A stretch of 56,590 nt of DNA, taken from Vicugna vicugna (lineage: Eukaryota). The notes beneath the pieces were generated by a model that ran no database searches, was not told where the DNA came from, and saw only the letters and a list, made by a program, of their open reading frames with translations. Made by a program: the position numbers and the translations under genes. Positions 4,109 to 56,238 of the stretch are shown piece by piece; the first letter of the stretch is position 1, and every line of letters begins with the position of its first letter. The stretch is taken from positions 26,700-83,289 of the forward strand of contig MU057507.1 of the NCBI GenBank assembly GCA_013265495.1, written 5' to 3'.

Positions 4109-6089
4109 GTGTTCTTTATTTAATTTCTACCCCTTCCTCTCCCTCAACACCCACATCCGGTTAGTCACGAACTTATTTTTCTTTTCCTTCACAATGCCTT
4201 TCCTCTGTCTATTCCTCTCTTTGGCTTTCTTAGTTAAAGTGCTTAATACACTACCTCACACCCAGGCTATTGTATTGCAATAGCCTCTTAACTGCCTCCA
4301 GTTTATCTCCTTTCCCATCCATCCTCTGCACTGCTGACAGATTAATATTCTTAAAGCATCACTTTGACTGTCACTTCACTACTTTAAAATTTCCCATGGT
4401 TTCCCATTGTTTACAGGATCCAGTCCCTACATCTTATGCTGCCAATTAGGTGCTTCACAGTTTGGCTGAATCTGTCATTTCTCCTTTCCATATGCTCTGT
4501 GCTCCAGCCACACTGTGCTTTTTTCACTCCTTTCCATAAGCTGACTTGCAAATAGTCTATTGGTTAGTTGCATGCATGGGCGCTGGACTCAGATAGGCCC
4601 AAGTTCGAAACCTGGTTCTGCCACTTCATAGTTGTATAATATTGGACTACTTATATAGCCTCTCTGGTCTTAGTTTCCTTATTTATAAAATAGGGATAGT
4701 AGTGGAATCCTACCATATAGGCTTATTATAAGAATTAAATGAGGTAATGCATCTAGAGTGCTTAGCACAGTGCCTGGTGCTTAGAAAACAACAACAACAA
4801 AGAAGGAGCAGGAGTTTGCTATTATTTTATTCATATTATACACTCTTCCTGGTTCTCTGCTCAGTCCATTTCTTCTGCCTTGAATGTCCTCTCCCAATCT
4901 CACCTACTGAAGTCCTTTGCACCTTTTAAAAAACATCTCAAATGCTACCTCCTCTAAGAATTCTCCTCTGCTTCTTCTAACTTGAGCACTTTGTTTGAAT
5001 ACCTCATCATTTTTCATCCCACCTTAGAATAAAACCATCAGCCTTCTTTGGCAGACTGAAAGCTCTTTTTTACCCTGTGTTCTAATCATATTTGTGTCAC
5101 CCACAACATCTATCACAATAGGTGGTATAGAACAGACACTTAATAAATATCTGTTGCCTGACTATGGCTGGAGATCACATCATTAGATGGAGAGGGTTCA
5201 GAGATTGGTAAACCATGACTATGGAGTAATTAAAGTTTCTAGTGTTTACACTAGCATCCCCTTTCTTTTCTTTCTTTCTTCCCCTATCTCCTACTCCTGC
5301 TTATTTTCTTTTCCATCTTGTTCTTCTCCTGTCCCTAGTCTTGCTAGTGTGCTCCATGGCCATTATTTAATCCTGCTTATGGCCTTTGAGGGCAAAGAGG
5401 TTCCTATGACAACCTCATATCTTGTCCCTTTGTCTTTACCGCTTAAGCTTTGATAAAAACCACCCTCCTATCTACTACAAATTCTTACAAGAGGGGTTCA
5501 TTAAATTTATGATCCAATTCTCCATCTGGAAACTGTGATAAAAATACAGAGCAAGAAATTAGACTTCTTTATGTAATGGCACTTAGCCTGCCCAGATACT
5601 AATCACCACTCTATGTCAGTAACATTCTTCAGCTCTTGAAGATTGCCTAGCCCAAACTTTGCTTTTAGTCTGCAAGTAAATTTTGAGATCTAGTTATCTA
5701 GTTATCTAATTTTCAAACTTTCCTTCCTTGGAATCTCCAAAGTAAGTCCTGTTTAGTATAAAATTGTGGCCATGTGAAATTATCTGTAAGCTTCATTGAT
5801 GTCTTCTGAATTTTCCACCATTCACCAAGCCATGTGATTATAGAGACAAATAAGATGTGGTCGACCCTTTGATAGAAGTGTACAATCTTGTAAATAAAGA
5901 TTTTATGAACTTTGAATTTTATATGCCACTGGGTAAGAAATATTGGTTCTCTCAGCTCCTGACTCCTAATCACAGCATCAGCATCATTCTGGCATTCTGG
6001 CTGCTTTTCTTTGCAGTGAACGAAGCTGTTCATTTTTCCCCCTCTTTTTTCATCAAAGAAACAAAAGGGGAGAGAAGAGAAGGAACTAG

Positions 6090-6310: not shown

Positions 6311-9300
6311 CCCCTGTATAAATCAACACCTGTACACCAGAGTAAATCCCTTTTTTCAGCACTTGCACAATGGATATGAACCATTTCCTATAGACTCTGG
6401 TTCAGATTTCCACACAGCCATCCCCTACCACCCATGGAAGTCAGAATGCTCTCTCCAACTTCCCAGTCTACTCTGAAGTGAGTCCTCTGTGTGGGAACCT
6501 GACAATCTATCTTGTGTCCCATGTGGTTGACCCCTGAATGAATCCCTTCATTTTTACCCTAGGAAACAAAGATACGGGAAAGTTCTTTAAAATGCATCTA
6601 GTGAATTTCCCAAAGCTGCATTCTAGAAAGAATGGAGCCAGATTTTACTCCTAATGGCTTCTTTAGAGAAAGAGGTAACACTGTTTTGGGGAAAAAAAGA
6701 AAAAGAAGTGTGCTTCTTGAATTTGTCTTAGCAAAGAGATTTTATGGATATAGTGGTAGATGTTTCCTTTATGCTATCTGAAACAGAAATATAGGGTCCC
6801 ATATTAACAGTAAAATAATCGGCAATAAAAGTCAGTTTAAATACAGGGATAACTCCATTTAAGAAAATCTACTACCTAAAATTCTGTATTCTTAAAACAG
6901 AGATATAGCAATCAGACAAGTAGTCATATTACAAAATATTCCTCACTTTTCTAAAATTTGCTACAGGGCTTCTTTTCTTAGAAAGCCCACCTAATGCATT
7001 TGAAATTGGAGTAGTTTTACAAAAGTTAAAAGGTATATATTTGTTAAGGAGCACATATATTATATAATTCAAGATATACCCATAGTGGGACTATGCATGT
7101 AGCAGGCATTTAGTAAACATTTTCTAACTGAATAATAGAATGGAAATCTAAAATGCAGCTATTTTCATCTTGAGTATATTCAATAATTTAAATTAACAGC
7201 TTTAAATGTTGTCAAATGTTTGAGGCATTTGCTTTAATGAATAGACATAAACCATTTGTAATCAGCAATATTGATTTATACTAGGTATGCTAGATTCTCT
7301 TGAGGAGGTTAAGCATGACCCCTGCAACCTTGTTTGCAATATTAATTTTCTCAGTAAATTTTTCCTTCATAGCTAGTGCAATAGTGAAACTTGGTAGATC
7401 ACTATTCAGAGGATTCCAAATTCACTATGAGTTCTAGAAATTTAACTACAAATCAAAGTCTGAAAAGAAGAACTGATATTTTGAAAGGGGTCTCCTAGTG
7501 GTATTGAACCAAAAGGAGGGAGTAGAAGTTTGGAAATGCTTTTTTTAACTATTGATTCAGTACTAACCATACTCAAGAGGAAGCAATTGTATTTCTGGAT
7601 CTTTATTTAGTCAGCAAATATTGTGTGTCTACTAGGTACAAATATTTCCATCACAGGTCTATACTCAGTTTCATATTAAGTAAGTGCTTCAAAAATAGAT
7701 ATATATTTTACTACAAATAAAAGAGGAAATATTTTGAAAAGGACTTTCTGAAGTACTGAACTAGAGGTGGCGAGAAAAGGAAAGGGTTCAGAGACAATAT
7801 GAAACAGGGATCAAGCAAGGTGGAATGTGCTAGAGAAAGAAAGAGAAAGTATAGCTTCAGATAAACCTTTCCCAATATCCCAGTGTTGCTGAAGGTTGAC
7901 TCAGTTAATCACAACAGAGAAGTCTGGCTTCATAGTAATAATTGGCTTCTCTGAACCCATAAACTTCAGAGTTCAGGATTTGGTAAGAAATTTGTTGGCA
8001 AGAGACATTCTGGATGCTCTTTGTATACTCTACCATTTTATTTAACTTTCTTAGTGGAGGAGGAGAACATTACCCTTGGGAAACAGGCTTAAGGGAAATT
8101 GATCTTCATGAGAACAACATATTGAGCAAGCAGACAGGACCTGACTCCCTAATGGGAGGAAGTTAAGGCAGGATATTAAGTTGAGCAGTTAGAGCAGCAA
8201 CTAGACTGAGAATGCTCTTAATGGTAGATTCTGATTCTCTCTCAAGATGAACAAAGCATCCAGACCATAGGGTTATGGGCCAGCCCTTCTGTACAGGAAA
8301 AGGATAATGAGAGGTAAGAAAAATCTATCAGGATTTCTATCAGCAGTGACGAAAATACAGCTTGTAGATTTTGGCTGGGGTGGGAAGAAAGTCATACCAA
8401 TAAACATTTACTAATATGCTACTGGGGACTCATTCTTATGTTAGATATGTGAAGGAGATCAGAGGAGAACAATTTTAAAAACTGTAAATTTGTCACAATC
8501 AGTGAAGAAGAGGAGTCTAGGAGCAGAAAGTTTCAAAAATAAAATTTGAGTGGTGACAGATAGTACTCTTGAATGCTGCAAGGTGGGTATTTAGAGAGCA
8601 GTGAGTAGGAGAGGTACTGAGGTTTTCTCCATTGTTAAAGTCAAACACCAGGACAATAAATGAAAGATGCAAGAAAATAAATGTCACCACTATTCAAATT
8701 TGTAGCACCATAAGTATATGAGCAGATGAGTATTAAAATGATGGAACAAATGTTTCAGTTCTTCTGAATATAAGGAAATCGAGCAGGCATAGAAAGATTA
8801 CCAAATGCTATTTCTTTACTTAGAGGACAAGATGAACATAGTCAATTAGAAAAATATATAACTCTAGAATGGTTTATTAATGGAATGTTTTCTGAACTCT
8901 ATCAATTTCAGATTTTTGCTATAAAGCAATAACCATAATTAGAGTCTACATTGATAGGTTAAATGAGGAACTTAGATATTTATACAGATAATTTAGATCT
9001 CTCACATTTTTATATGAAGTATTTTGGCAGTTGGGACCAAAAAAAGTATGAGCCATTATTCTCGGCACTACTTACTAGGATAATTGCTGCCATTCTTCAC
9101 ATTTAGTCTAGGTATGTCACATAATGACACATCACATATCATTTGGCCCAAGATATTTCCTGGCCTATTTCATTGTCTGTCGTGTTGACAAATGGAACAG
9201 AATTGGGAAAAAAGTATTAGGCACCAAAGAATATAGTTTAATTAGAAATATCTGTCACCAGGTCTCAATAATGCTTATCTCCCAGTCTGTTTCTGGGTCT

Positions 9301-9975
9301 CAATATTGTTTGTTTCAGGCATCTCAGCAATGCCTATCCCCAGGTTTCAATAATGTCTTTCTCTAGGTCTCAAGGTGCAAAACCACAAATAACAAAATCA
9401 TTTCCCTGGACACCAAGGGGTTTCTAATATTAAGGTGTGATTCCTTTTAAAAGTGAGTTATCTATAATGTTCCACAAGTTCTGTTCAAAGAAAAATAAAC
9501 TTTTAACCAAATTTTCCTGTTGCCTGGGACAAACTTGAATTATTCAAGACACTACTTACAGTAAGTTTTTTGACAAAAAAAAAAAACGCTTCATCTATTA
9601 GCAGAAGAGCTAGTAGAGTACAAGTTAAGGATTTCTTCTCTACTCTGCTTTTCCAAAGACTCTCTTTCTGGGTAGTTTTCCTGTTCACCAGCCTAGTATC
9701 TCTCAGATACCACTTTCAGGAACAGGTTTACATGTATTTGGACCGAGGGATGACCTAAATAGTGAGGACTGGGCTACTAAGATGATCTTCTGTACCTACC
9801 AGTTATCCTTGATATCATTAAACAATTTCCCTGATATCTGTATAGTATAACTTTGGGGAGAATAAATTTAGATCGAAGGGCACATTTGCATGTTATATGT
9901 TTGTCACTTATATTTTTAATGGATAGATCTGGAGGTGTAAAGAAAGGGAGAGCACTGGGTTTCTGATTGTTTTAA

Positions 9976-14356: not shown

Positions 14357-15305
14357 ATGAATCTCACAGATATGGGTAATCTGACCATGATCAAAGAATT
14401 TCTCCTCCTGGGATTTGGGAGTCTCCATGGGTTACAGTTTTTTTCTTTTTGGGATATTTCTGGGAATCTATGTAGTGACCTTGCTAGGGAATATTCTTAT
14501 CCTTACAGTCATTTCCCTTGACCGCAGCCTCCAAACCCCTATGTACTTCTTTCTGTCCAATTTCTCCTTCCTTGAGATCTGGTACGCTACCTCCATTGCC
14601 CCTAAGATGCTGCAGACCCTTCTCTCAGGTCCTGAGGTGATTTCTTTTGTAGGTTGTGTGGCCCAGTTTTACTTCTTCGGGTCAATGGCAGTAGTTGAGT
14701 GTTTTCTACTGGCAGCCATGTCTTATGACCGCTACCTGGCCATCTGCAGCCCCCTCCAGTACTCATCCCTCATCCACACACGTTTCCTGTTTGCAGGTGG
14801 GTCTTGGCTGCGTGGCTTCCTAACCCCTGTGGTCACTGTCACCATGACTTTCCAGTTGCCATTCTGTGCAGCCTATAATATTGACCACTTCTTCCGTGAT
14901 CTTGCCCCAGTGATAGAGCTGGCCTGTTCTGATACTGAGACAGTAGAGAAAACCACTTTCATCCTGGCCTCCTTCATTACCATGGTGCCCTTCCTACTCA
15001 CTGTAGCCTCCTATATCCACATTGTTGCTGCTGTCTTCAAGATTTCATCAACTGCAGGAAAGCAACAGGCCTTCTCCACCTGCTCCTCCCACCTCATAGT
15101 GGTAACTCTGTACTATGGAACACTGGGAACAGTGTATGCCATTCCCACAGCAACCCAGGCTGCTGCCCTTAACAAGATCTTCTCCATGCTCTACACTGTG
15201 GTCACTCCCATGGTCAACCCCATTGTGTACAGCCTGAGAAACAAAGATGTTAAAAATGCAGTAAGGAGGCTCATGAGTCAATGGGCATATACTAAGGAAA
15301 CCTAA
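14357..15305 (+). pseudogene. Olfactory receptor pseudogene, class II, family 11-like
   Basis: ATG 14357 (or 14372) MNLTDMGNLTMIKEFLLLGFGSLHGLQFF, then an extra T in the T7 run 14438-14444; downstream frame has GN, LQTPMYFFL, PKML, MSYDRYLAICSPL, AFSTCSSHL, PMVNPIVYSLRNKDV; HFFCD is changed to HFFRD (14895); splice acceptor ttctcttctttctctAG ends at 14347. Confidence 0.9.
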
Positions 15306-16495: not shown

Positions 16496-18955
16496 TGTTT
16501 TTAGTGAGTTATAGTCAGTTTACAATGTTGTGTCAATTTCCAGTGTAGAACACAATTTTTCAGTTAACATGAACATACATATATTCATTGTCGCATTCTT
16601 TTTTGCTGTGAATTACCACCAGATCTTGTATAAATTTCCCTGTGCTATACAGTATAATTTTGTTTATCTATTCTACATATGTTTGTTAGTGTCTACAAAT
16701 TTCGAACTCCCAGTCTGTCCCTTCCCATCCCCCTCCCCCCTGGCAACCACAAGTTTGTATTCTATGTCTAAGAGTCTGTTTCTGTTTTGTATTTATCTTT
16801 TGTTTTGTTTTGTTTTTGATTCCACATATTAGTGATCTCATATGGTATTTTTCTTTCTCTTTCTGGCTTACTTCACTTAGAATGACATTCTCCAGGAACA
16901 TCCATGTTGCTGCAAATGGCGTCATGGTGTCGGTTTTTATGGCTAAATAGTATTCCATTGTATAAACATACCACTTCTTCTTTATCCATCATCTGTCGAT
17001 GGACATTTGGGCTGTTTCCATGTCTTGGCTATTGTAAATAGTGCTGCTATGAACATTGGGGTGGAGGTGTCATCCTGAAGTAGATTTCCTTCTGGATACA
17101 AGCCCAGGAGTGGGATTCCTGGGTCATATGGTAAGTCTATTGCTAGTCTTTTGAGGAATCTCCATACTGTTCTCCATAGTGGCTGCACCAAACTGCATTC
17201 CCATCAGCAGTGTAGGAGGGTTCCCTTTTCTCCACAGCCTCTCCAGCATTTGTCATTTGTGGACTTTTGAATGATGGAAATTCTGGCTGATGTGAAGTGA
17301 TACCTCATTGTAGTTTTGATTTGCATTTCTCTGATAATTAGTGATATTGAGCAGTTTTTCATGTGCTTTTTGATCATTTGTATGTCTTCCTTGGAGAATT
17401 GCTTGTTTAGGTCTTCTGCCCATTTTTGGATTGGGTTGTTTGTTTTTTCTTTTTAAGTCATATGAGCTGCTTATATATTCTGGAGATCAAGCCTTTGTCG
17501 GTTTCCTCGTTTGCAAAACTTTTCTCCCATTCCGTAGGTTGTCTTTTTGTGTTACTTATGGTTTCCTTTGCTGTGCAGAAGCTTGTAAGTTTCATTAGGT
17601 CTCATTTGTTTATTCTTGCTTTTATTTCTATTGCATGGGTAGACTCCCCTATGAGAACATTTCTGAGATGTATGTGAGATACTGTTTTGCCTAGGTTTTC
17701 TTCTAGGAGGTTTATTTATTGTATCTTGTCTGATGTTTAAGTCTTTGATCCATTTGAGTTTATTTTTGTGTATGGTGTAAGGGAGTGTTCTAGCTTCATT
17801 GATTTACATGCTGCTGTCCAGTTTTCCCAACACCATTTGCTGAAGAGACTGTCTTTATTCCATTGTATATTCTTGCCTCCTTTGTCGAAGATGAGTTGAC
17901 CAAAAGTTTGTGGGTTCATTTCTGGGCTCTCTATTCTGTTCCATTGGTCTATATGTCTGTTTTGGTACCAATACCATGCTGTCTTGATGACTGTAGCTCT
18001 ATAGTATTGTCTGAAGTCTGGGAGAGTTATTCCTCCAGCCTCTTTCTTTCTCTTCAGTAATGCTTTAGCAATTCTAGGTCTTTGATGGTTCCATATAAAT
18101 TTTATTATGATTTGTTCTAGTTCTGTGAAATATGTCCTGGGTAATTGGATAGGGATTGCACTAAATCTGTAGATTGCCTTGGGCAGTATGACCATTTTAA
18201 CAATATTGATTCTTCCAATCCAAGATCATGGGATATCTTTCCATTTTTTAAGTCTTCTTTAATTTCCTTAATCAGTGTTTTATTGTTCTCTGTGTATAAG
18301 TCTTTCACCTCTTTGGTTAGATTTAATCCTAGGTATTTTATTACTTTGGGTGCTATTTTAAAGGGGATTGTTTCTTTACTTTCTTTTTCTGTTGATTTAT
18401 CGTTAGTGTAAAGAAATGCAACTGATTTTTGAACATTAATTTTGTAACCTGCTACCTTGCTGAATTCTTTGATCAGCTCTAGTAGTTTTTGTGTGGACCT
18501 TTTAGGGTTTTCTGCATATAGTAACATGTCGTTGGCACATAGTGACATTTTTACCTCTTCTTTTCCAATTTGGATCCCTTTTATTTCTCTCTCTTGTCTC
18601 ATTGCTGTGGCTAGGACTTCCAAGACTATGTTGAGTAGGAGTGGTGATAGTGGGCAGCTTTGTCTTGTCCCAGATTTTAGTGGGAAGCTTTTGAGTTTTT
18701 CACCGTTGAGAACTATGCTGGCTATAGGTTTGTCATATATAGCTTTTATTATGTTGAGATATGTTCCCTCTATACCCACTTTGGCGAGAGTTTTTATCAT
18801 AAATGGGTGTTGAATTTTGTCAAATGCTTTTTCTGCATTGATTGAGATGATCATGTGGGTTTTGTCCTTTGTTTTGTTGACGTGATGTATTACATTGATT
18901 GATTTGCATATGTTGAACCACCTTTGTGTCCCTGGGATGAAACCCACTTGATCAT
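16496..18955 (-). mobile_element. 5'-truncated young L1 (~2.46 kb; RT domain to poly-A) with target-site duplication
   Basis: ORF2 fragments 18117-18947 ([30 protein letters not shown]), 17737-18195, 16982-17191, 16686-16958 in shifted frames; TSD taagacatcttcaattgaatt 16475-16495 vs taagacatattcagttaaatt 18956-18976. Confidence 0.97.
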
Positions 18956-19093
18956 TAAGACATATTCAGTTAAATTGTAATGCAACCCCCAACTTTCTTT
19001 CCTCTTTGTTTCCATTTATGTGCTTCTGACCTATGAAGAACTTTGACCTGATGAAAGGTAATCTTTATTGGCTGTCAGTGATGTGAATGAGTA

Positions 19094-19589: not shown

Positions 19590-20160
19590 CTACTGAGCTT
19601 AGAAAACTTCAATGACTTCCTATTGCTCTTAGGGTCAAGTCCAAATGCCCTGTGGATGTGACCAACATTACTTGTCATAATACCCAAGGACATGTAGCCC
19701 ATCTAGAGCCTGTCCACAGCCAAAAAGATATAACTCTTTCCTTGATCTCCAGTCTAATGCTTTGTTGCTTTGTTGTTCTCTGAACTCCTTTCCTCCCTGG
19801 ATGTCTTTATGTTCCTCAAATCTAATTGCCCCCTTGTAACTTTCACACATACTGTTTTTTCCCCTCCCTCACTCCACTTTACACCTGGCTCATTCTTTGG
19901 GTTCCACTCGGTCTTTTTATCATACCTTCTTAGAGCACTCTGGCTTTTTCACTTTTTCATTTTAAATTTCTCACAATTGTATTTGAACATTCTGTGTGAC
20001 ATATAATATAGATATAGATATATATCCTCTATGTGGACTATAAACTTCACAAAGGCAGGATCTGTGTTTTGTTTGACCACTACATCCCTAGTACCCAGCA
20101 AAGAGCTTAACAGAGAATAATTGTTCAATAAATACTTGTTAATAAAAGAATGAAAAAGAG
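19590..20160 (+). mobile_element. L2 3' fragment
   Basis: aaaacttcaatgacttcctattgctcttagg...ggcaggatctgtgttttgtttg...gttcaataaatacttgttaataaaagaatg. Confidence 0.75.
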
Positions 20161-21388
20161 CCATCTAAAGTTATTTCATTTATTTGATAAAGTATTATGT
20201 TGTTTTCACTCAAGATTCAGTTATTTAATCTTCTTGTGCCCATTAGTTTCACTCGGTTCCCCAAACCACAGTGTACCTCCTTATTCTCTGCCTATCATCA
20301 CACAAATGTGTGTAGTGCCCCTGAGAGAATGGAGGAGGGAGGAGCTCAAGACAGCTCATTCCTGCTAGTGAGGAACATATCAAAGTGCATGTCCTGCTCA
20401 CAGTGATAGTACAGCCTCCCTGCGGAACACAAAAAGCAATACTTTTTTTTATTGTGGTGCTTTGGTTGCTACACTGCTTCTGCAATGTGAATAGATTTTC
20501 TCTATTCAGTGAAACATTATGATAATGATTAGACACAGTAATTAATAGCAAAATCAGATTAGATTTTCATGTCTCTGTACAAGCCAAAGAGAAATTATCC
20601 CCATTAACCTGATCAGTACAAACTGTCATACTAGATTAGAAGAGCTCCAGCTCCAATTTGTACCTTAACCCTCACTGCTTTGGCCAGATGGCTTGCTTGT
20701 ACCTCCATGGCTGCCTAGGAAAGAGGGAAAAGAAATCTGGAATGGGCAATTCAGGGGTGAGGAGAGGCAACATGGGCTTCAGTCTTGCCCTAAAGGAAGT
20801 TTGTCAGCAGTATGTTCCACAATATCAGAAACCCATCTATGTTAATATTTCTATACAAAGGGGCCAGGCTAGGAAGCAGGGAAGGCTACATGGTTCTCAG
20901 GGCAGTGGCATTAATTGTGAAAGGTTATTATGGTGTTCCAGAAGAGAGAGAACCTAGAGACAAATTTCAGAACTTTTAGAGCAGAGGACTACCAAGAGTT
21001 AGAAAAGTATCAGGAACTCAGACAAATGAATTGGGGCTCAAAATGGGATTCAAAGGTTAATTTTAGTATAAACCAAGAGTAGAAGCAAAAAATATTTAGG
21101 GCATTCTGGCAGGGGGCTCCAAGATTCCTAAACTTTAACCCATTATCTGTTTCTTCTGCTTCTCAGGCTCCATAGCCTCTTCAAGTTTATCTTCTATGCC
21201 CAACTTCATCTGTAGTGCAAGATTGCTGCTGGCATAAATATGAACAAAGACACAAGCAAAGTGGGGACATAGTGTCTGGTCCCACTACTCTTCTAGCTGG
21301 TCAAGATTGGGGTTTAATAAAGCTGATATCAAACTGTGTTTCACAGAACCACTAAATAGGAGGGATTGTGTGACAAGCCCATTAGAAT

Positions 21389-22913
21389 TTATATATCTAA
21401 ATGAGCGTCATCCCCTTCACAGAAGTCCACTGGGGAAACTATACACTTATTCCATTGATGCAAAAAACAAAGTCATTGGAACTTATTTTTGAGTATTTTC
21501 TTTAGGGTCTTCGATATGTTCTTTTGGATTTCTTCAGCTAAGGTTAACGTTCATCTTTTCAGGATGGATTTACATTCTACAAATGGCCAAAAGTCTCTTT
21601 GAGTTTGTTCTAACAAATAACTATGGAGATTAAGTTGAGTGATATCACTCAAATAATTTGAATTCTTTAACTAGTGTTCTTATAGTTACAACCATTAAAT
21701 GTTGTCCAAGCCCATGGACTAAATCAGAGATGGCGAGAATCTAAAGATCAGACAGACCAGTTGGACTTACCTAAGCTCTGAGAAGGGCCTAAATAAACTC
21801 AAGCAAGTAACCAAAGTGTCACAGAGACCTGGCAGTGGCAATAGTAGAGATCAAGGCAAGAAATAGGCAGAAGGAATTCAGGAGTCCCAAGAGCAGATAG
21901 AATTAAAGTATTAAAGTAAGGATTAGAAAGGCCTGAAGAGAAGCAAATCAGAATCCGACTCTCAGGGTAAATGGATTATCAATTGAGGAACCAAAGAAGA
22001 AATTTGGATTCTAGAAGAAGTTATAGGAAATTAAGCAGGAACCCCAATAAAATTATGGGAAGAAAAAGTCAGAGTAAACCTGAATTTCTAATATTTCCCC
22101 TGTGCAAAACTAAGATTGTTCCAAGAGCCAAGATTAGAGCTGAACCCACAGGGATTTTTGAATGCCCTTAGGCACAACTAAAATTGTAAAAATTGTCAGC
22201 CACAGCACTGTCATGGTGAAGAAGCCTGTCACATAATTCCAGTAGTACTTTAGAATGTCTATCCTACTAGCCTGACTGCCGGCCTTTTGAGAATTGAATT
22301 CTACATGGACAGTACCATCATTGTTGTCAGAATAGCACAAATCCATTATCCTCATGTGTAGTTGGATTCTGCAGCCATTTTGGAATCTCTGGCATGCTGA
22401 AGTTTGCCTCTGAGGTTTCTAGCACTTTCGCTTTTTGGTCATACCAGAAAAGATACCTTCCACCCTGGTTACTATGCTGCTTGAGAACACCTTGTTTTGT
22501 TGAAATTCCTTTGATAGTTCAAAACAAATGTCAAGTCCTTCCTGTTTCCATTCATCATTCAAAATGCACTGACATTTCAGAAATTTTGCTTGTGGTTAAG
22601 GATTCTTCCAGAAAGTTAGCTTCTCCATCCAAATTGGATTCCCAGACATCATTCTTACAGTTGCAAGGCATTAAGAAATTTAACAAAGCAGAAGTTTTAC
22701 TTTTTCAATATTTCCATCAGGGTCCCATCAATGACTAGATGATCAATTCGCACATTATAATAGACACCTTTCCTAAACCTTTTTTGACAGTCCCAATTCT
22801 TGCTCTTGATACTATTCATCCCTTGATAATATCTTTTAACACAAAAACTATCTCACAAATTCATTTCACATAGTATTGATATTGATCCTTTTCTCTAAAC
22901 AATAGCCACTCAT
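21389..22913 (-). mobile_element. Decayed Tc1/mariner (mariner) transposase fossil, near full length, split by a ~0.5 kb insertion
   Basis: Manual minus-strand translation across frameshifts gives colinear motifs: MSGYCLEKRINI (ATG 22913), QKRFRKG, GNIEKVKLL, TVRMMS...NLDGE, SSIVT...WYDQKAK, GTVHVEF, RLLHHDSAVA, DFWPF...KSILK, HQWNKCIVSPVDFCEGDD, stop at 21389-21391. Confidence 0.8.
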
Positions 22914-23540: not shown

Positions 23541-24744
23541 GACAGGAAGACCAGTCTGACTTAGTTAAAAGGCAGAATATCTTTCAAAGCTATAAAATAA
23601 CACCTCTACTAATATTGACTCTTCTTGTTCAGAAACTTCCTTCACAGAGTAATATCAGAAACATATTCCATTCCAGCCATGCTCCAAGGGGAGGCTGTGA
23701 CTCTCAGGCTTGTGGGATATATCTCTGTTTCCTTGGAACAGGACCCAATATCAGTTATTCTTGAGCTAAAGGCACTGCAGACCTTTAACTTCCCCACTAA
23801 AATGGACTTAGCTCTCTCTTTTCTTCAGCTGCCACTATCACTAGCCAAGGACCGAGAGCTTTCATTAATTTTCTATGTCTCTATGTCTCTATGAACCAGG
23901 CTGACTTTATTCAAATGAACTTTCTCCTCAATGAATCGATTAATTTAGGTATCACTGTTTGTTATTGTTACTTTCAAATATACACAGTGAATTGTATTAC
24001 CCAATAGTTGGCTTAATGGGATCCATATTAATAAACAGATATAGTCAAGTTTGATGTGCAAATGACACTTGCATTGCCCATGTGATTCTGTTTAAGATAT
24101 TAATTTACCAAACATGTCCTTTCTCTTTGTAGCTGGTGAAATGATAAACTTCAAAACCTAGTTTATAAATGAGACAGTCCCATATTATGAATTAGTGAAG
24201 TCCAAATTAATGAGGTTTAGTTTATCTATATTAACTCTAACTGCAATGATATATCACTTACCTGAAGGTTCCCTTCCTAGAAACCATAATTGTCTAGTAC
24301 TCTTAGAGCTAAACTCTAAGAATTAACCTTTAAAAACCTGAGAACAGCCAAAAGAGATGATACAAAAGCTATACAACAATGCACTATACACTCATGCAGA
24401 GTACTTACAGAAAAACTCCTGAGGCTCTGAATTTTACTTTATACACAATTGTAACTTAGCTTGGTTTCTGAACCTAGGTTAGAATAGAAAATGTCAAAGG
24501 GCTACTGAAGGCAAAAACAATATTATCAGCAAGCAAAAACTTTGGAAAAAAGACAGGATACTTCTTTAAAAATAGACAACCAGGGGCCATTTGTTGGATG
24601 ATTAAACAGTCTGATACACTCCAAGGTAGCTCCTAAGGACATCCCTTATATCCAAGCCCAACTCAATGATTAGTGTCTATAAAAATGGCCTGGAATCAAC
24701 CTGAAAAGGGCAAATTGTGTCAAGTTCACTTGGCATGGAAAGAT

Positions 24745-24990
24745 AGGGATGGACAAAATAGGTGAAGGAGATTAAGAGATAAAAACTTCCAGCTTTAAAA
24801 TAAACACATTATGGGGATTCTATGTACACATAGGGAATGTAGTTGATAATATTGTAACAACCTTCTATGGTGATGGATGGTAACTGGTCTCATTGCGGTG
24901 ATCATTTCATAATGTATAAAAATATCAAATCACTATGATGTACACCTGAAACTAATATGTGTTAATTATAAATCAATTTTTAAAATATAA
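24745..24990 (+). mobile_element. L1 3' UTR fragment (L1MA9-like)
   Basis: ggtgatcatttcataatgtataaaaatatcaaatcactatgatgtacacctgaaactaat. Confidence 0.85.
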
Positions 24991-25310
24991 AGACATCCAT
25001 CTGAAACAATTACAATGAAAAAGACTTGGCCACTGCAAGTACACTTCTATTATTTGGGACATTCACTTGCAAACATGTCCTTGCCAGCCAATGCCAAACA
25101 GATCAGGTGTTAAGGTATCTGCCAACCAAGGCATGTCACAGTAGGTTCTGCCAACCTGATTTCAATGAACAGGTAAAGTTTTTTGATGAGCACATAGTGT
25201 ATATGTAAATAAAGCAGATGCTGGTGAAATTTTTCTCTCCCCTTCCTGAGGTGGTACACATGTGAACATCACCAGTATAAATGGTGTCCCAGTTATTTAC
25301 AAGTTTGAGT

Positions 25311-25770
25311 TAATGAGGTGACTCTTTTGCTGCATGTATGTTGGTGGGGGCATGACTGTTCTCCAAGGATGAGTCCTGAAGCTCCTGAGAGTTTTTTAAG
25401 GCTGTACTTTAGACAGAAAGGATACTTGGGGCTGGCCATTTTGCTACACCACCTCCCAGGAGAAATGTGTCCCAGCAAGAAAGAAAGGTATTGGCAAGGA
25501 AAAGTTATTTTTCCAGGTTTCTAATGAAGTCAGGGAATTCCCTCTCACCTGGTTACCAATAATAAACATACCCTTTGGTGGGGAGGGGGAGAGTGCAAAA
25601 TAATGGCATCCCAAGGAGCTGTTATTGCTTACTTTTAATAACTCCCCCAGAGCCCATCTCCCAGTGAAGTTCTTTGTAGTTAAAATGCCTCCTTTAACTA
25701 AGTCAGGTGTGACCAATTAAAACCACCAACTCTGCAGTGAATGCTACACTAACTCCTTAATCCCAAGAGT
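25311..25770. promoter_or_regulatory. Candidate intergenic OR enhancer (Lhx2/Ebf composite motifs)
   Basis: TAATGG-CA-TCCCAAGGAG (25601-25618) and TAATAA-CT-CCCCCAGAG (25636-25652) share an 8-nt TAAT-to-EBF offset; also TAATGA 25311 and 25522, TCCCAGGAGA ~25454, TCCCAAGAG ~25761. Confidence 0.5.
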
Positions 25771-26405
25771 CAGTGTGCAAAGGAAGGAAGGAAAATGACA
25801 AAACAAGCAGGCTATTGGCTATAAGAAAGGGAGGCACTTACAAACCTAGCTACAGGGAGTGCATAGGTTGCTTGTAAGTAACTGCACTGTGCATGTATCT
25901 ACACAGCATGTCTTATGTGCATCTTGTATGGAGATATTTAAATGAAAAGATGATTTGTACATATATATTTATGCACATACATATCTGTACACATATATGG
26001 ATAATATGACTGTCTATGTAAATAGCATATTTACACTGGGGGCATTTAGGAGAGGGGTAAAGAGTTCACTACATTCCAGCATCGCTCCTAACAACACCCT
26101 AAGTTCACCCCAGAATCAAATAATGAGTGCCCATGAAGATGGCTTGGAATCATCCAGAAAAAGTTGTATCAGGTTCATTTGGTATGAGAAGAGAGAAAGC
26201 TATCTGAGACAAATTTCAAAGGTTTTGTTATTTCAAGTGATGCTTCTGTTATTTGTGACATGCACTTATAAAGAGTACCTCCTTCCCAGCAGGTCAGTTG
26301 CAAACAGATCAGGTGTTACAATTATCTGCCAACCAAAGTAAGTCATACTAGGTTCTGTCACTGTGGGTATGGGTCTGTGTATCAGCATTTTGTGTCTGTA
26401 GTGTA

Positions 26406-26407
<2 letters not shown>

Positions 26408-31992: not shown

Positions 31993-32918
31993 TCAAACCC
32001 TCAGCTTCTTCAAGGCCTCCTTGACATCGTTGTTTCTGAGGCTGTAGATAAGGGGGATACACATGGGGTTGAGAACAGTATAGAGCAAGGAGAAGGTTTT
32101 GTTAAGAACTGGCACCTGGCCAGCAAAAGGCAGAGCATAGACTAGGATCAAGGTCTCGTAAAACAAGTTTACAACCACTAGATGAGAGGAACAAGTGGAG
32201 AATGCCTTCTGCTCATCAGTCATGGAAGATATATGCAAGACTGTGGAAAGAATCTTCCAGTAGGAGACTAGGGTTAGTCCAAAGAGGGACGATGTCACCA
32301 GTGCTGTTAGACTCATACAGACCAGGTTGACTAGCTGGGGATCTGAGCAGGAGAGCTTCCACAGAGGCTTCAAGTTACAGAAGAAATGGTCAATCTTGTT
32401 GCCACTGCAGAAGGTCAAGCTGGATACCATAGCAGCCTGGAATGCAGCTGTCACTATGAAGTCACTAACCCATGAGCCAATTACTAGCCCTACACATATG
32501 GTTCCATTCATTAGGGTTGGACAGAGCAAGGGCCAGCAGATAGCCAGGTATTGGTCATATGACGTCATTGCCAGAAGATAACATTCAGTGCTGCCCAGAG
32601 CCCCAAAGAAATACAGCTGAATAATACAACCTACGATGGAGATCATTCTGTTCTCTCTCAACAAGTCTATAAGCAACCTGAGCATGATATTGGATGCATA
32701 ACAGACCTCCAGGCATGAGAAGTTTGCCAGAAAGAAGTACATTGGTGTCTGGAGCCCCTGTTTAGTGCTCACCAGGACTACACAGAAGAGATCACAGAAA
32801 TGGTGGCTAAGTAGACAATGCCAAACACCAAGAAGAGCAAGAGACCCAATTCCTTGAGGTCTCCAAACCCTGGTATGATAAATTCAGTCACTATTATAGT
32901 GGTATTTCCTGGCCCCAC
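31993..32918 (-). pseudogene. Olfactory receptor pseudogene, class II, family 11-like
   Basis: GTG 32918 (lost ATG) VGPGNTTIIVTEFIIPGFGDLKELGLLLFLVFGIVYLATIS, 1-nt deletion ~32791 (stop at 32778-32780 in the original frame), then LVSTKQGLQTPMYFFLANFS, TSYDQYLAICWPL, HFFCN, KAFSTCSSHL, PMCIPLIYSLRN; reconstructed length 308 aa. Confidence 0.92.
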
Positions 32919-33664
32919 AGAAGTTCCTAGGGATATGTCAGTTCCTCCATACTGTTTTTTCAGACTGCTCTACCATTTAGATTTCCTACATAGTACAATT
33001 CTATCAGTGGTTGGAGTTCTGCACTGATTAGGGCATTTCGTGAGGACTGGCCCTCATTGTAGCTAGTTAATTTTACCTTCAGAAAAACTTTTATGGAAAT
33101 CAGCTGAACCTGTAATCTGGTCAGGGGATGGAATAAGAATGAGAAGACTAAATGGGAGAAGGAATGGTTCAGTGAAAGTCTATCCCCATCCTTAAGGAAA
33201 TGATCCAGAGTACAATTGTATAAGACCTTCATATTCACATTGAACAGAGATATGGAGAGCCCATGCTTGGCATTCTTTATGTCATTTTGGACAGAATAAA
33301 TTTCCAAGGAAAATTCCTACTAAATGTTGACAATTCAAAGAAATGGTGGACCAGATAGAAAATCATATTCATGATCTTTGTCAGAGCATGAAATGGAAGG
33401 TGAAATGCCATGACTGAAGCAGAGAACCATTCCATTGATGTTACTGGGGCATCCATGCTTGTTGGTAGTGACATTTCTGTGATAGCAGAATAGTAATTGC
33501 TGGAGAGAGAGTAGATTTTGGAAAACTAGGTACATTCTATAACAGAATAAGGATTTCTTGTTTTTAAAGCTTGCCCCATAAAAGGCTGGATTTTAGAATT
33601 CTGGGGAGAAAGCCCAGCAGTTGACATCTGAAACTGCTGGTTAGATTCATATGCACATATTTGA

Positions 33665-47719: not shown

Positions 47720-50700
47720 TCACATTCACACATATACTATTGTTCATACACTTACATTGGATATTCACAAAAAGGATGGGAGAAAGACTTCCCTGCAAGC
47801 TTTCTCAGACTCTTCTCTCCTATGAAGCAAAAGCCTTAAGATGCTAGGCATAAGGCAGAAAATTCTCTCACATCCATGGCACAGGCAAAGATCTATTGCT
47901 TTGAGGGTTGGCGGAGGGAAAGTTGAAGGCATACTTGTCTGTCTCTAAGGAAAGCATAAGGAATCTTTTACCCAGAAGTCAAGAAAAATCCTTTGCCCCC
48001 GGGGGAAGAATATAAGCAAATCCCTCTACTTCTGAAACAGAAGCAGGAACCTTTCTTGGATCCAGGATCCTACAAACATAACACACAGAGCTCTGCTACA
48101 ACTGGAAGAGGGACAGGAAACTTCTGTCCAAGACCAAAAACAGATACAAGGCAGATCATTGCCAGTGTGAGGATGGCTGGGAGTACTAAGAAGCTTCTTT
48201 CCTGAAGCCCTGGTGTACAGGGCCTATCTGAGACTGACACTGGACCAAGAAAACAGAGAACATGCTATGCCCCCATGAGGATCCCAGTGCAAAATAACAA
48301 GCAACAGCATTTTTCTGTTGAAGGAGGGGCAAGAACATAGAAAGAACTCCCCTCTGTGGCCCAGGCATGCAAGGGCAACTGAAAGCTGAGGGGAAAACAG
48401 GAACACTGAGAAAAACCCTGTGGCAACACAATTCACACTCTAAGGATGTGATATTAGCAGCTTATAAGAATTCAAAGCCAGTGGTACACTGATGATAATG
48501 ATAGCACAAGTCACAAAACCTGCTCAAGTACTGAGTGGACTGACTTAGTTTCACAATTAAATGGCCCTATAAAGGAAGAGGCAGGTTCATATCTTTCATA
48601 TCTAGACATAACTATTTACCTTAGTTCTTAGTATTCTTCTAAACACATTGTCTGGTATTAAATGAAAAATTAAGAGACAAATAGAAAAGCAAGAAAAAAT
48701 GATTTATTGTCAAGAAATTAAGCAACCAACCAAATCTCATTCAGAGTTGTTGCAGCTATTGCAATGATTAGAAAGATACTTTAAAATAACTATAATAAAT
48801 ATGATAAATGACCTAGTGAAAAAGATGGATGAACATGTATGAACAGATGGAGAATTTCAGCACAGCAATGGAAACTACATGGAAGAGAAAAATGGAAATA
48901 CTATAAATTTTTTAAAAACACAGTAACAAAGTAATACAGTAATGAGTTTACACAGATGAATAATGCCTTTGATGGCCTCATTAATAGATGGATACGACCA
49001 AAGAAAAGATTAGTGAACTTGGGGATAGGTCATCGTAAATTATTCAAACTGTAATGCAAAGAGAGGGAAAAAGTGAGGGAAAAAAAAAGAACAAAGCACC
49101 CAAAAGTTGTGGGACAATATATAGTTGACTAACATACAAGCAATTTGAGTCTCAGAGAAGAGGCAGGGAAAAAAATGGGGCAGAGGAATCCATTGAAAAC
49201 AGAATAACTGAGAATTTTCAAAAAATAATGAAAGGTTACACACCACATATCCAAGAGCCAGATGTGGATAAATATAAATACACATTTCAAGATAAATCAA
49301 AGTTAAACTTCTGAAAACCATCTATAAGACAAAATATTGATGGTAAAGAAATGCAGTACATTTAAAGGAGCAAAAATTAAAATCAATGTAGACTTCTCAT
49401 CAGAAACTTGCAAGCCAGAAGATAACTCAGTGGCATATTTAAAGTATGAACAGAAATATATGCCAACCTAGAAATCCATACTTATTGAAAATATTTTTCA
49501 ATAATGAAGAGAAAATAAAGACTTTCTCACACAAAAGCTGAGAGAATTTACTTCTAGTAAACACGTACTACAAGAAATGTTAAGGGAAGTTATTTAAGCA
49601 GAAAGAATAAGATACCAGATGGAAACTTGGATCTATAGAAAGAAATGAAAAGCGCCAAGAATGATAAAAATAAAAATAAATATAAAAGGCATTCTTTGAA
49701 TATTTTAGTCTCTTTAAAATTAAATAGGCAATCTCAAGAAAAAATAGTAAAACATATTTTGAAATTTATAACATAAATAAGTAAATTGCCTAGCAACAAT
49801 AGCACAATAGATATGAATAAGTAATTTGTAACATACTGGTGTAAGGTTCTTATTCTATATGTGAATTGTATACTATTATTTGAAGTTGGACTGTGACTAA
49901 TTAAAGCTGTATATTATAAATCATAGTGAAACCAATAAACAAAAATTTTAAAAGAGCCTAAACAAGTTAAGAGAGGAGATAAAATGGCATCATAAATATA
50001 CAATCTATTCAAAATAAAACAGGAAAAGAGGAAAAATTAATAAATAACAGATGAGATTAGCAAAAAACAATTACTAAGATATAGATGTAAATGTTAACTA
50101 TATCAACAATTCCATTAAATATAAAGTCTGAACATCCACAGAAAAGGTAGATATTGTCATATTGGCTATAAAAGCAAGACCCAGTTATATGCTTTTTACA
50201 AGAAGCTCACTAGAAATATAAAATTCCTGATAGATGAAAAGTAAAGTGAAGGAAAATAAGATATACCATAAAAACCTTAACCAAAAATAAAGCTGGAATG
50301 ACTATATGAATGAATATCAGTGCAAGAATACTTCAGAACAAGTAATATTACTACCAGAGGTAGAGACATTGCATAATAATAAGGACTTCAGTTCATCAAG
50401 AAGACATCACAATCCTAAATGTGTGTATACTATCAACAGAATTTCAAAATACACAAAACGAAAGTTGTCAGAACCGAAAGGAGAATAAGATAAATACACT
50501 ATTACAGTTGGACATTTCAACACTTCTCTCTCATTTTACAATAGAACAAGTAAGAAGAAAATAAATAAGGATATAGAAGGATTTTATGTTGGTATCTGAA
50601 AACACTAATGAACTTATCTACAAAACAGAAACAGACACACAGACATAGTAAACAAATTTATGGTTACCAGGGGAAAGCGGGTAAGAAGGGATAAACTGGG

Positions 50701-55135: not shown

Positions 55136-55718
55136 TCCATTGTTCATAGCAGCACAATTTACAATAGCCAAGACATGGAAACAACCCAGATGTCCACTTA
55201 CAGATGACTGGATAAAGAAGTTGTACTATATATACACAATGAAACACTACTCGGCCATAAAAAATAATAAAATAATGCTATTTGCAGCAACATGGATGGA
55301 GCTGGAGATTGTCATTCTAAGTGAAGTAAGCCAGAAAGAGAAAGAAAAATATCATATGATATCACTTATATGTGGAATCTTAAAAAAAAAGATACAAATG
55401 AACTTATTTACACAACAGAAACAGACTCACAGACACAGAAAACAAACTTATGGTTACCCGGGGGGTGGTGGGGAACAGGGTGGTAAGGGATAAATTGGGA
55501 GTTGGAGATGTGCAGATACTAACTACTAAATATAAAATAGATAAACAACAAGTTTATACTGTATACTACAGGGAGCTATATTCAATATCTCATAGTAACC
55601 TATAATGGAAAAGAATATGAAAAGGAATATATGTGTGTATATGTATGACTGAAACATTATGCTGTGCACCAGAAATTGATACAACCTTGTAAACTAACTA
55701 TACTTCAATAAAAAAAGA
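55136..55718 (+). mobile_element. 5'-truncated L1 3' end nested in an L1 endonuclease domain, 18-bp TSD
   Basis: ORF 55140-55493 is the ORF2 C-terminus; TSD aaaagacatagggtggct 55118-55135 vs aaaaggcatagggtggct 55719-55736. Confidence 0.95.
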
Positions 55719-56238
55719 AAAAGGCATAGGGTGGCTAAATGGATTAAAAAAATGGTCCATATATATGCTGCCTACAAGAGACTCACTTCAGAGCTAAAGA
55801 CACACAAATTGAAAGTGAAAGGATGGAAAAATATATTCCATGCATATCAAAGTGAAAAGAAAGCTGGGGTAACAATACTCATATATGACAAAATAGACTT
55901 TAAAACAAAGTCTATAACAGACATAAAGAAGAACTTTATATAATTATAAAAGGGTCAATATGAGAAAAGGACATAACATTCATAAACACATATACACCTA
56001 ACATAGAAACAAACACATGGAGACTAAGTAACATGCTACTAAAAGGAAAATCAATGGATTAACAAAGAAATTAAAGAGGAAATCAAAAAATACCTTGAGG
56101 TGAATGAAAATAGAAGCACAACTTTTTAAAATCTATGGGATGCAGCAAAATGAGTTCTATGAGGAAAGTTTATAGTGACTCCAAACTCATTTTACAAGGC
56201 CAGCATTACTTGGATACCAAAACCAGACAAAGACACTA

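Follow-up and report, generated by a model that had tools for sequence, protein, structure and literature searches.

The window analyzed here, that is, the whole stretch of 56,590 nucleotides (56.6 kb) of vicugna DNA, contains two olfactory receptor (OR) pseudogenes, OR1 and OR2, which face each other tail to tail as the corresponding pair does in mouse. Between them lies a candidate regulatory element, bracketed by an old direct duplication (74-77% identity) that does not include it. The main features are as follows.

14357..15305, plus strand: OR1, pseudogene, ortholog of mouse Olfr1321 (Or5o1); open frame 14391-15305
24511..25208, plus strand: left copy of the duplication, ~450 bp, split by a repeat fragment at ~24750-24990
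25306..25770, no strand assigned: candidate Lhx2/Ebf (Greek-island-type) element, ~460 bp, proposed from motif counts and from homologues that together span 25216-25716
25973..26406, plus strand: right copy of the duplication, identical to the left copy at 157/213 and 153/200 positions; contains the composite-like site at 26121
31993..32933, minus strand: OR2, pseudogene, ortholog of mouse Olfr1320 (Or11q2); open frame 31993-32883, frame break at 32793-32802

In a tree of 22 proteins, OR1 and OR2 each grouped with their own mouse protein (100/100). The mouse genes, Olfr1321 (chrX 49,683,474-49,684,460, plus strand) and Olfr1320 (49,726,976-49,728,208, minus strand), are also tail to tail. Since OR1 and OR2 converge, the candidate element is downstream (3′) of both, 10.0 kb from the stop of OR1 (15305) and 6.2 kb from that of OR2 (31993). 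The original prediction had given 6-10 kb to either OR coding region, which our measurements bear out, and had called both neighbors pseudogenes, as they indeed are, both being frameshifted near the N terminus. The lesions of OR1 comprise a frameshift in a T-run at ~14440-14450, a 2-codon deletion and a change of HFFCD to HFFRD. This frameshift could be an assembly slip, but the 2-codon deletion and the loss of a conserved cysteine are further signs of a young pseudogene. The end branch of OR1 in the tree (0.087) is short, as in the intact orthologs (0.061 and 0.07), so that OR1 probably died late. OR2 has a long branch (0.17 shared with camel plus 0.028), which suggests an early death; it shows 94% identity to a Camelus ferus record, as fits a camelid source, and camel records of OR2 likewise begin at an internal Met. 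If OR1 died only recently, the element could look intact without continued selection.

Between OR1 and OR2 no OR remnant came up in a profile search, the best matches there having E values of 8 or worse. Upstream of OR1, two weak collinear OR profile matches (5896-6036 and 6508-6591, plus strand, E ~0.04 each) may be the remains of a further, heavily decayed OR pseudogene. At 9260-9375, some 5 kb before OR1 begins, there are about four degenerate units of 23-34 bp, each with a TAATG-like site followed by an O/E-like site, the spacer being one base longer than in the island composite; we take this tandem repeat for the probable promoter of OR1. A weak third match to the duplicated unit was seen near 20000-21500, and a truncated L1 with ORF2 fragments lies on the minus strand at 16498-18965, with related 3′ ends at 1-563 and 55137-55722. 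The window is contained wholly or partly in 20 of the 24 sequencing runs listed (18 with all sampled words, 15 flagged as a possible source), and no RNA run is among the listed runs containing window sequence; two runs with a small share were left out of account. A search for OR11Q-type genes with flanking DNA gave two loci from 82 candidate metagenome stretches, both distant paralogues at 43-44%, and none from 42 candidates in prokaryote genomes or 33 in viral contigs.

Motifs of the candidate element

The sites within the element are listed below; P0365, P0367 and P0375 are homologues described in a later section.

25311..25316, plus strand: homeodomain site TAATGA, seen in the sequence and compatible in P0365
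25353..25369, plus strand: composite-like site with a broken homeodomain half (O/E-like at 25361), rank 17 under a five-composite matrix; new relative to the original prediction
25381..25390, minus strand: O/E-like site of the YYYCARRRR type, kept in P0365 with one forced change
25454..25463, plus strand: best stand-alone O/E site, one base away from TCCCNNGGGA; the window contains 15 such sites
25522..25527, plus strand: homeodomain site TAATGA, compatible in P0365 and P0367; poor O/E half downstream
25601-25618, plus strand: composite 1, TAATGG-CA-TCCCAAGGAG, with TAAT and O/E half in the Sfaktiria/Lipsi register and positions 7-8 off consensus
25636-25653, plus strand: composite 2, TAATAA-CT-CCCCCAGAG, with a weak homeodomain half (TAATAA) and an O/E-like half
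25714..25719, minus strand: homeodomain site TAATTG, seen in the sequence and half covered by a homologue
25761..25770, plus strand: O/E-like site, outside homologue coverage

The composites at 25601 and 25636, the TAATGA sites at 25311 and 25522 and the O/E-like sites at 25454 and 25761 had all been named in the original prediction, and we found every one of them in place. The starts of the two composites are 35 bp apart. A T-run precedes composite 2, resembling an extended homeodomain site, and the 11 bases ending at the 25522..25527 site are identical to those of the Rhodes Lhx2 probe. Counted with the TAATKR and YYYCARRRR patterns given in the available text of PMC5638857, the element holds four sites of the former type and five of the latter, and it is the only 460-bp window in the 56.6 kb with at least four YYYCARRRR and at least three TAATKR sites. 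An in-register composite-like site with a good TAATGA half lies 350 bp beyond the element at 26121-26138 (plus strand; rank 2 under one graded model) and may extend it.

Several other accounts of the sequence were set aside. The two composites are not a recent 35-bp duplication, because outside the motif only 3 of 17 bases are alike. The copy of the element sought within the flanking duplication scored at the level of shuffled sequence, Rfam gave no RNA family match at the element, and a coding gene is contradicted by stops and by frameshifts against the homologues.

A composite is described in the available parts of PMC11643329 as an Lhx2 and an Ebf site 1 bp apart, in a 17-position pattern. 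Five reference composites taken from supplementary files 7 and 6 of PMC5608512, as far as these were available, namely the Sfaktiria probe and four Lipsi sites (from the first 400 bases of an enhancer-hub construct, the Lipsi identity being taken from construct order), fit this pattern exactly with TAAT at position 1. Both composites of the element are in the same register as all five, so the fixed geometry claimed in the original prediction is that of real Greek-island composites; an apparent conflict with the published 1-bp spacer is a difference in counting. Like Sfaktiria and Lipsi, the element has TAAT at positions 1-4, followed by a run of pyrimidines (9-12) and one of purines (14-18), and composite 1 is identical to the Sfaktiria composite at 12/18 bases, including positions 11-17.

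The fit is imperfect in other respects. Composites 1 and 2 depart from the published pattern at two positions and one position, respectively; both have C at position 7, where the pattern and 5/5 references have a purine; and the Lhx2 halves of both are weak as read from their bases. There are no exact TAAT-anchored matches to the published pattern in the element and 15 elsewhere in the window. The best exact match to the pattern, at 48966 (minus strand), lies within 48940-48983, which we take to be an old L1 fragment; an exact match in such sequence indicates that single composites arise easily. Under our own five-site matrix, which is not the published matrix with its score thresholds of 5 or 10, the two composites ranked 60 and 526 of 113,146 positions and the element was not top; they ranked 1-3 under graded models written after the sites had been seen. 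Composite 2 differs at three positions from the J-element 13-mer, a level reached 57 times in the window.

Comparison with known OR regulatory elements

As described in the available parts of PMC5608512, Greek islands are intergenic in OR clusters, measure ~450 bp and have more than one composite with extra homeodomain and O/E sites. The candidate element is similar in all of these: it lies between the Or5o1 and Or11q2 orthologues, its composites have the stereotyped spacing, and two composites within ~450 bp also occur in 27/63 islands by our own count. It differs in having C at position 7 in both composites, in having pseudogenes for both neighbors and in being known from sequence alone.

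The H, P and J elements, in the available parts of PMC5638857 and PMC7804114, have several TAATKR sites with neighboring YYYCARRRR sites in 200-450 bp, as the candidate does. They are conserved across species, for which the candidate has indirect support from its three homologues read as peptides. The candidate lacks a good extended homeodomain 13-mer (three mismatches at best).

Homeodomain and O/E sites are also shared with OR proximal promoters, according to the available parts of PMC3247239, and the element might accordingly be the leftover promoter of a deleted OR gene or a promoter-like fragment connected with the old duplication that brackets it. We consider this highly improbable. The element is not directly upstream of an OR start, as both ORs point at the site, and it is downstream of both genes and outside the duplicated unit; the stretch between the genes holds no OR remnant; and the element carries composites, which are depleted from OR promoters (PMC11643329, available parts).

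Frequency of comparable clusters by chance

Our measure of chance was the number of simulated 56.6-kb windows that held an equal cluster anywhere. A pattern fitted to the two composites was found in 0/400 simulations, twice over, a result that is post hoc and circular. When sites were defined by TAAT, the published register and the O/E core given in the available text of PMC3247239 (at most two mismatches), a pair within 60 bp occurred in 9-17/500 simulations and a pair within 460 bp in 62-75/500; the window has five such sites, versus 3.9-4.3 in simulations. A joint signature of at least two composites, one O/E site and three homeodomain sites was reached in 15-23/600 simulations, and the full observed counts in 1-2/600. 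The TAATKR and YYYCARRRR counts (4 and 5) were reached in 70-115/600, the homeodomain/Ebf count in 104/150, a looser pair test in 27/150, and the graded models, written after seeing the sites, in 1-17/150; O/E counts alone were at chance level (487-493/500). The element was the top or only cluster in the window by the smaller of the two homeodomain/Ebf counts, the graded models, the joint signature and the TAATKR/YYYCARRRR counts.

Enrichment over chance is therefore borderline, with a window-wide p of ~0.003-0.19 depending on the definition. The motif features are real and exceed chance modestly, not overwhelmingly; judged by motifs alone, a real element would be a tentative call that falls somewhat short of even. 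The least tuned tests (window-wide p 0.12-0.19) and the weak Lhx2 halves speak for neutral intergenic DNA with a chance cluster of short degenerate motifs, whose homologues would be orthologous DNA of close relatives. The joint signature, however, is unique in the window, and the homologues below bear further on this account.

Homologous sequences and motif cores

A 90-codon stop-free frame across the composites was compared with 1.84 billion predicted proteins in a full HMMER scan, which gave five matches, three of them (P0365, P0367 and P0375) 71-80% identical, in a kind of search that favors the best-kept, stop-free copies. These three come from metagenome and run assemblies, are distinct, find a good match at this locus alone, and move from one of its frames to another. 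We infer that they are spurious gene calls on homologous non-coding DNA, and that this is probably host DNA of three other mammals. The remaining two, P0366 and P0369, are repetitive proteins at 31-32% identity that we discounted as chance matches. The cluster member P0373 had no match in the window, and the same pseudo-ORF drew no hits in a word-index protein search. False gene predictions of this sort, made on host DNA within metagenome assemblies, can be used to probe the conservation of non-coding mammalian sequence.

Frameshift-aware alignment implied DNA divergences of 18%, 14% and 13% for the three homologues. Forced changes affected 82/717 covered positions overall and 0/48 at the TAAT and O/E half-site cores, where ~5 were expected (Fisher p 0.004; likelihood ratio p 0.002); the core mask was chosen after the list of changes had been seen, and the cores were compared with other positions of the same homologues. 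Random 4-bp blocks had no changes in 0.6% of 20,000 draws. All these comparisons share the camelid branch, and silent positions are invisible in a peptide-based reading. Shared positions mapping to the camelid branch numbered 4/158 and 1/74, which seems few and is at most a hint of continued selection there.

P0365, the longest homologue, kept 7/7 fully covered motif tests, some of them overlapping, as did 1-2% of neutral simulations at 18-21% divergence. Its residue identity was 72/103 inside the element versus 13/28 in the flank (p 0.026), and its divergence was 27% to the left of the first TAATGA versus 14-18% inside. P0367 kept 1/2 and P0375 3/4 motif tests, and neither alone shows a difference between motifs and the rest. 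P0365 and P0375 are both compatible with the core of composite 1, and each requires C in place of the camelid A at 25608, a change toward the consensus; in composite 2 the sole forced change in P0375 is at the degenerate position 25649. The O/E site at 25454 is altered in the homologues, fitting YYYCARRRR in P0365 and failing at fixed coordinates in P0367, and the site at 25353..25369 (25361) is struck by an indel in P0365.

For hoofed mammals a divergence of 13-14% on the X chromosome, as implied for two of the homologues, could be close to the neutral level, and this counts, together with the lack of a mouse peak, for a neutral cluster. The 0/48 core changes and the rise in divergence just outside the first TAATGA count against it, and on balance we regard a neutral cluster as unlikely.

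The counterpart interval in mouse

The mouse peak table for olfactory neurons has no Lhx2 site at chrX:49.6-50.1 Mb, the only match being Schiza at 50.196 Mb; this search spanned 25/29 Monahan supplementary files, in their available parts, with limited sensitivity for this cluster (PMC5608512). The Schiza row in that supplement is classed Lhx2-only. No island in the orthologous interval is among the 63 and 27 listed. The list of 63 has one on X, at 74.56 Mb, and Schiza (chrX:50,195,564-50,196,065, mm10) is among the 27 added later, according to the available parts of PMC11166570. In the searched ~60% of one mouse ATAC table, where 25 rows had matching coordinates and none of these was on X, there was no chrX row at 49.68-49.73 Mb, and Schiza was not found there either.

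In the mouse tables searched, the overlap that the original prediction had proposed as a check came out negative, with neither an Lhx2 peak nor a listed island in the orthologous interval. Its description of the element as the cluster's enhancer is not supported; the island listed for this X cluster is Schiza. Schiza belongs to the same X-linked OR cluster but lies between Olfr1323 and Olfr1324, ~470 kb from Olfr1321 (PMC11166570, available parts), and by its position in the gene order it is not the ortholog of the element. The literature we covered, with few subscription papers, on Olfr1320/Olfr1321, Or11q2/Or5o1/OR11Q1P/OR5AW1P, Schiza, the composite motif and orthologous islands describes no element here. 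The element also differs from the Greek islands in that the mouse lists show nothing corresponding to it in this interval. Greek-island membership is defined by binding and chromatin, and with no Lhx2 peak or island listed in the mouse interval used as a proxy, we do not file the element as a Greek island. Conservation across all the placentals tested holds for only 15/36 mouse OR enhancers, so absence of an OR enhancer in one species is common, and mouse may have lost or weakened this one.

Conservation combined with no signal in mouse olfactory neurons would also be explained by a conserved homeodomain/EBF enhancer that serves a non-OR neighbor, ARHGAP36 or IGSF1, in another tissue. The OR pair presumably lies between these two genes. 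In human, ARHGAP36 and IGSF1 share one 0.8-Mb domain, as given in the available parts of PMC10090176, and composite motifs occur in non-island elements too (PMC11643329, available parts). The composite is, however, enriched in OR enhancers over other co-bound sites in mouse, and the element sits between two ORs; an enhancer of a non-OR neighbor is in our judgment quite improbable.

Discussion

Taken together, the motifs and the homologues lead us to favor, with moderate confidence, a conserved Lhx2/Ebf Greek-island-type OR enhancer of the X-linked Or5o/Or11q pair that is missing from the mouse lists searched. On the sequence evidence, such an element would work like a Greek island. By extension from mouse work, Lhx2 would bind the TAAT sites in olfactory neurons and an Ebf dimer the O/E halves, the fixed spacing would allow Ldb1 recruitment through Lhx2, and the element would stay open inside OR heterochromatin, make nearby ORs in cis more likely to be chosen and perhaps join inter-chromosomal hubs. 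With its two nearest targets dead, one long ago and one recently, it may still be active, be weak or have begun to decay.

A stronger version, in which an ancient OR enhancer kept across mammals and absent from mouse catalogues is still selected in camelids though both adjacent ORs are dead, is distinctly unlikely in our view. Selection after gene death would imply that the element is kept for long-range or inter-chromosomal (hub) service or has been co-opted by a non-OR neighbor.

Studies of OR enhancers have been confined almost entirely to mouse, as stated in the available parts of PMC6744719. Because the enhancer mechanism is already known, the surprise here is moderate. If a conserved element is indeed missing from the mouse lists, the catalogue would be incomplete for other mammals, and composite-motif scans could find such elements. 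As the nearest targets are pseudogenes of different ages, the locus would offer a clean test of whether an OR enhancer degenerates together with its targets in cis or is retained to serve the shared hub. Should the element still be under selection after the death of its genes, it would amount to a natural experiment testing the importance of Greek islands in trans.
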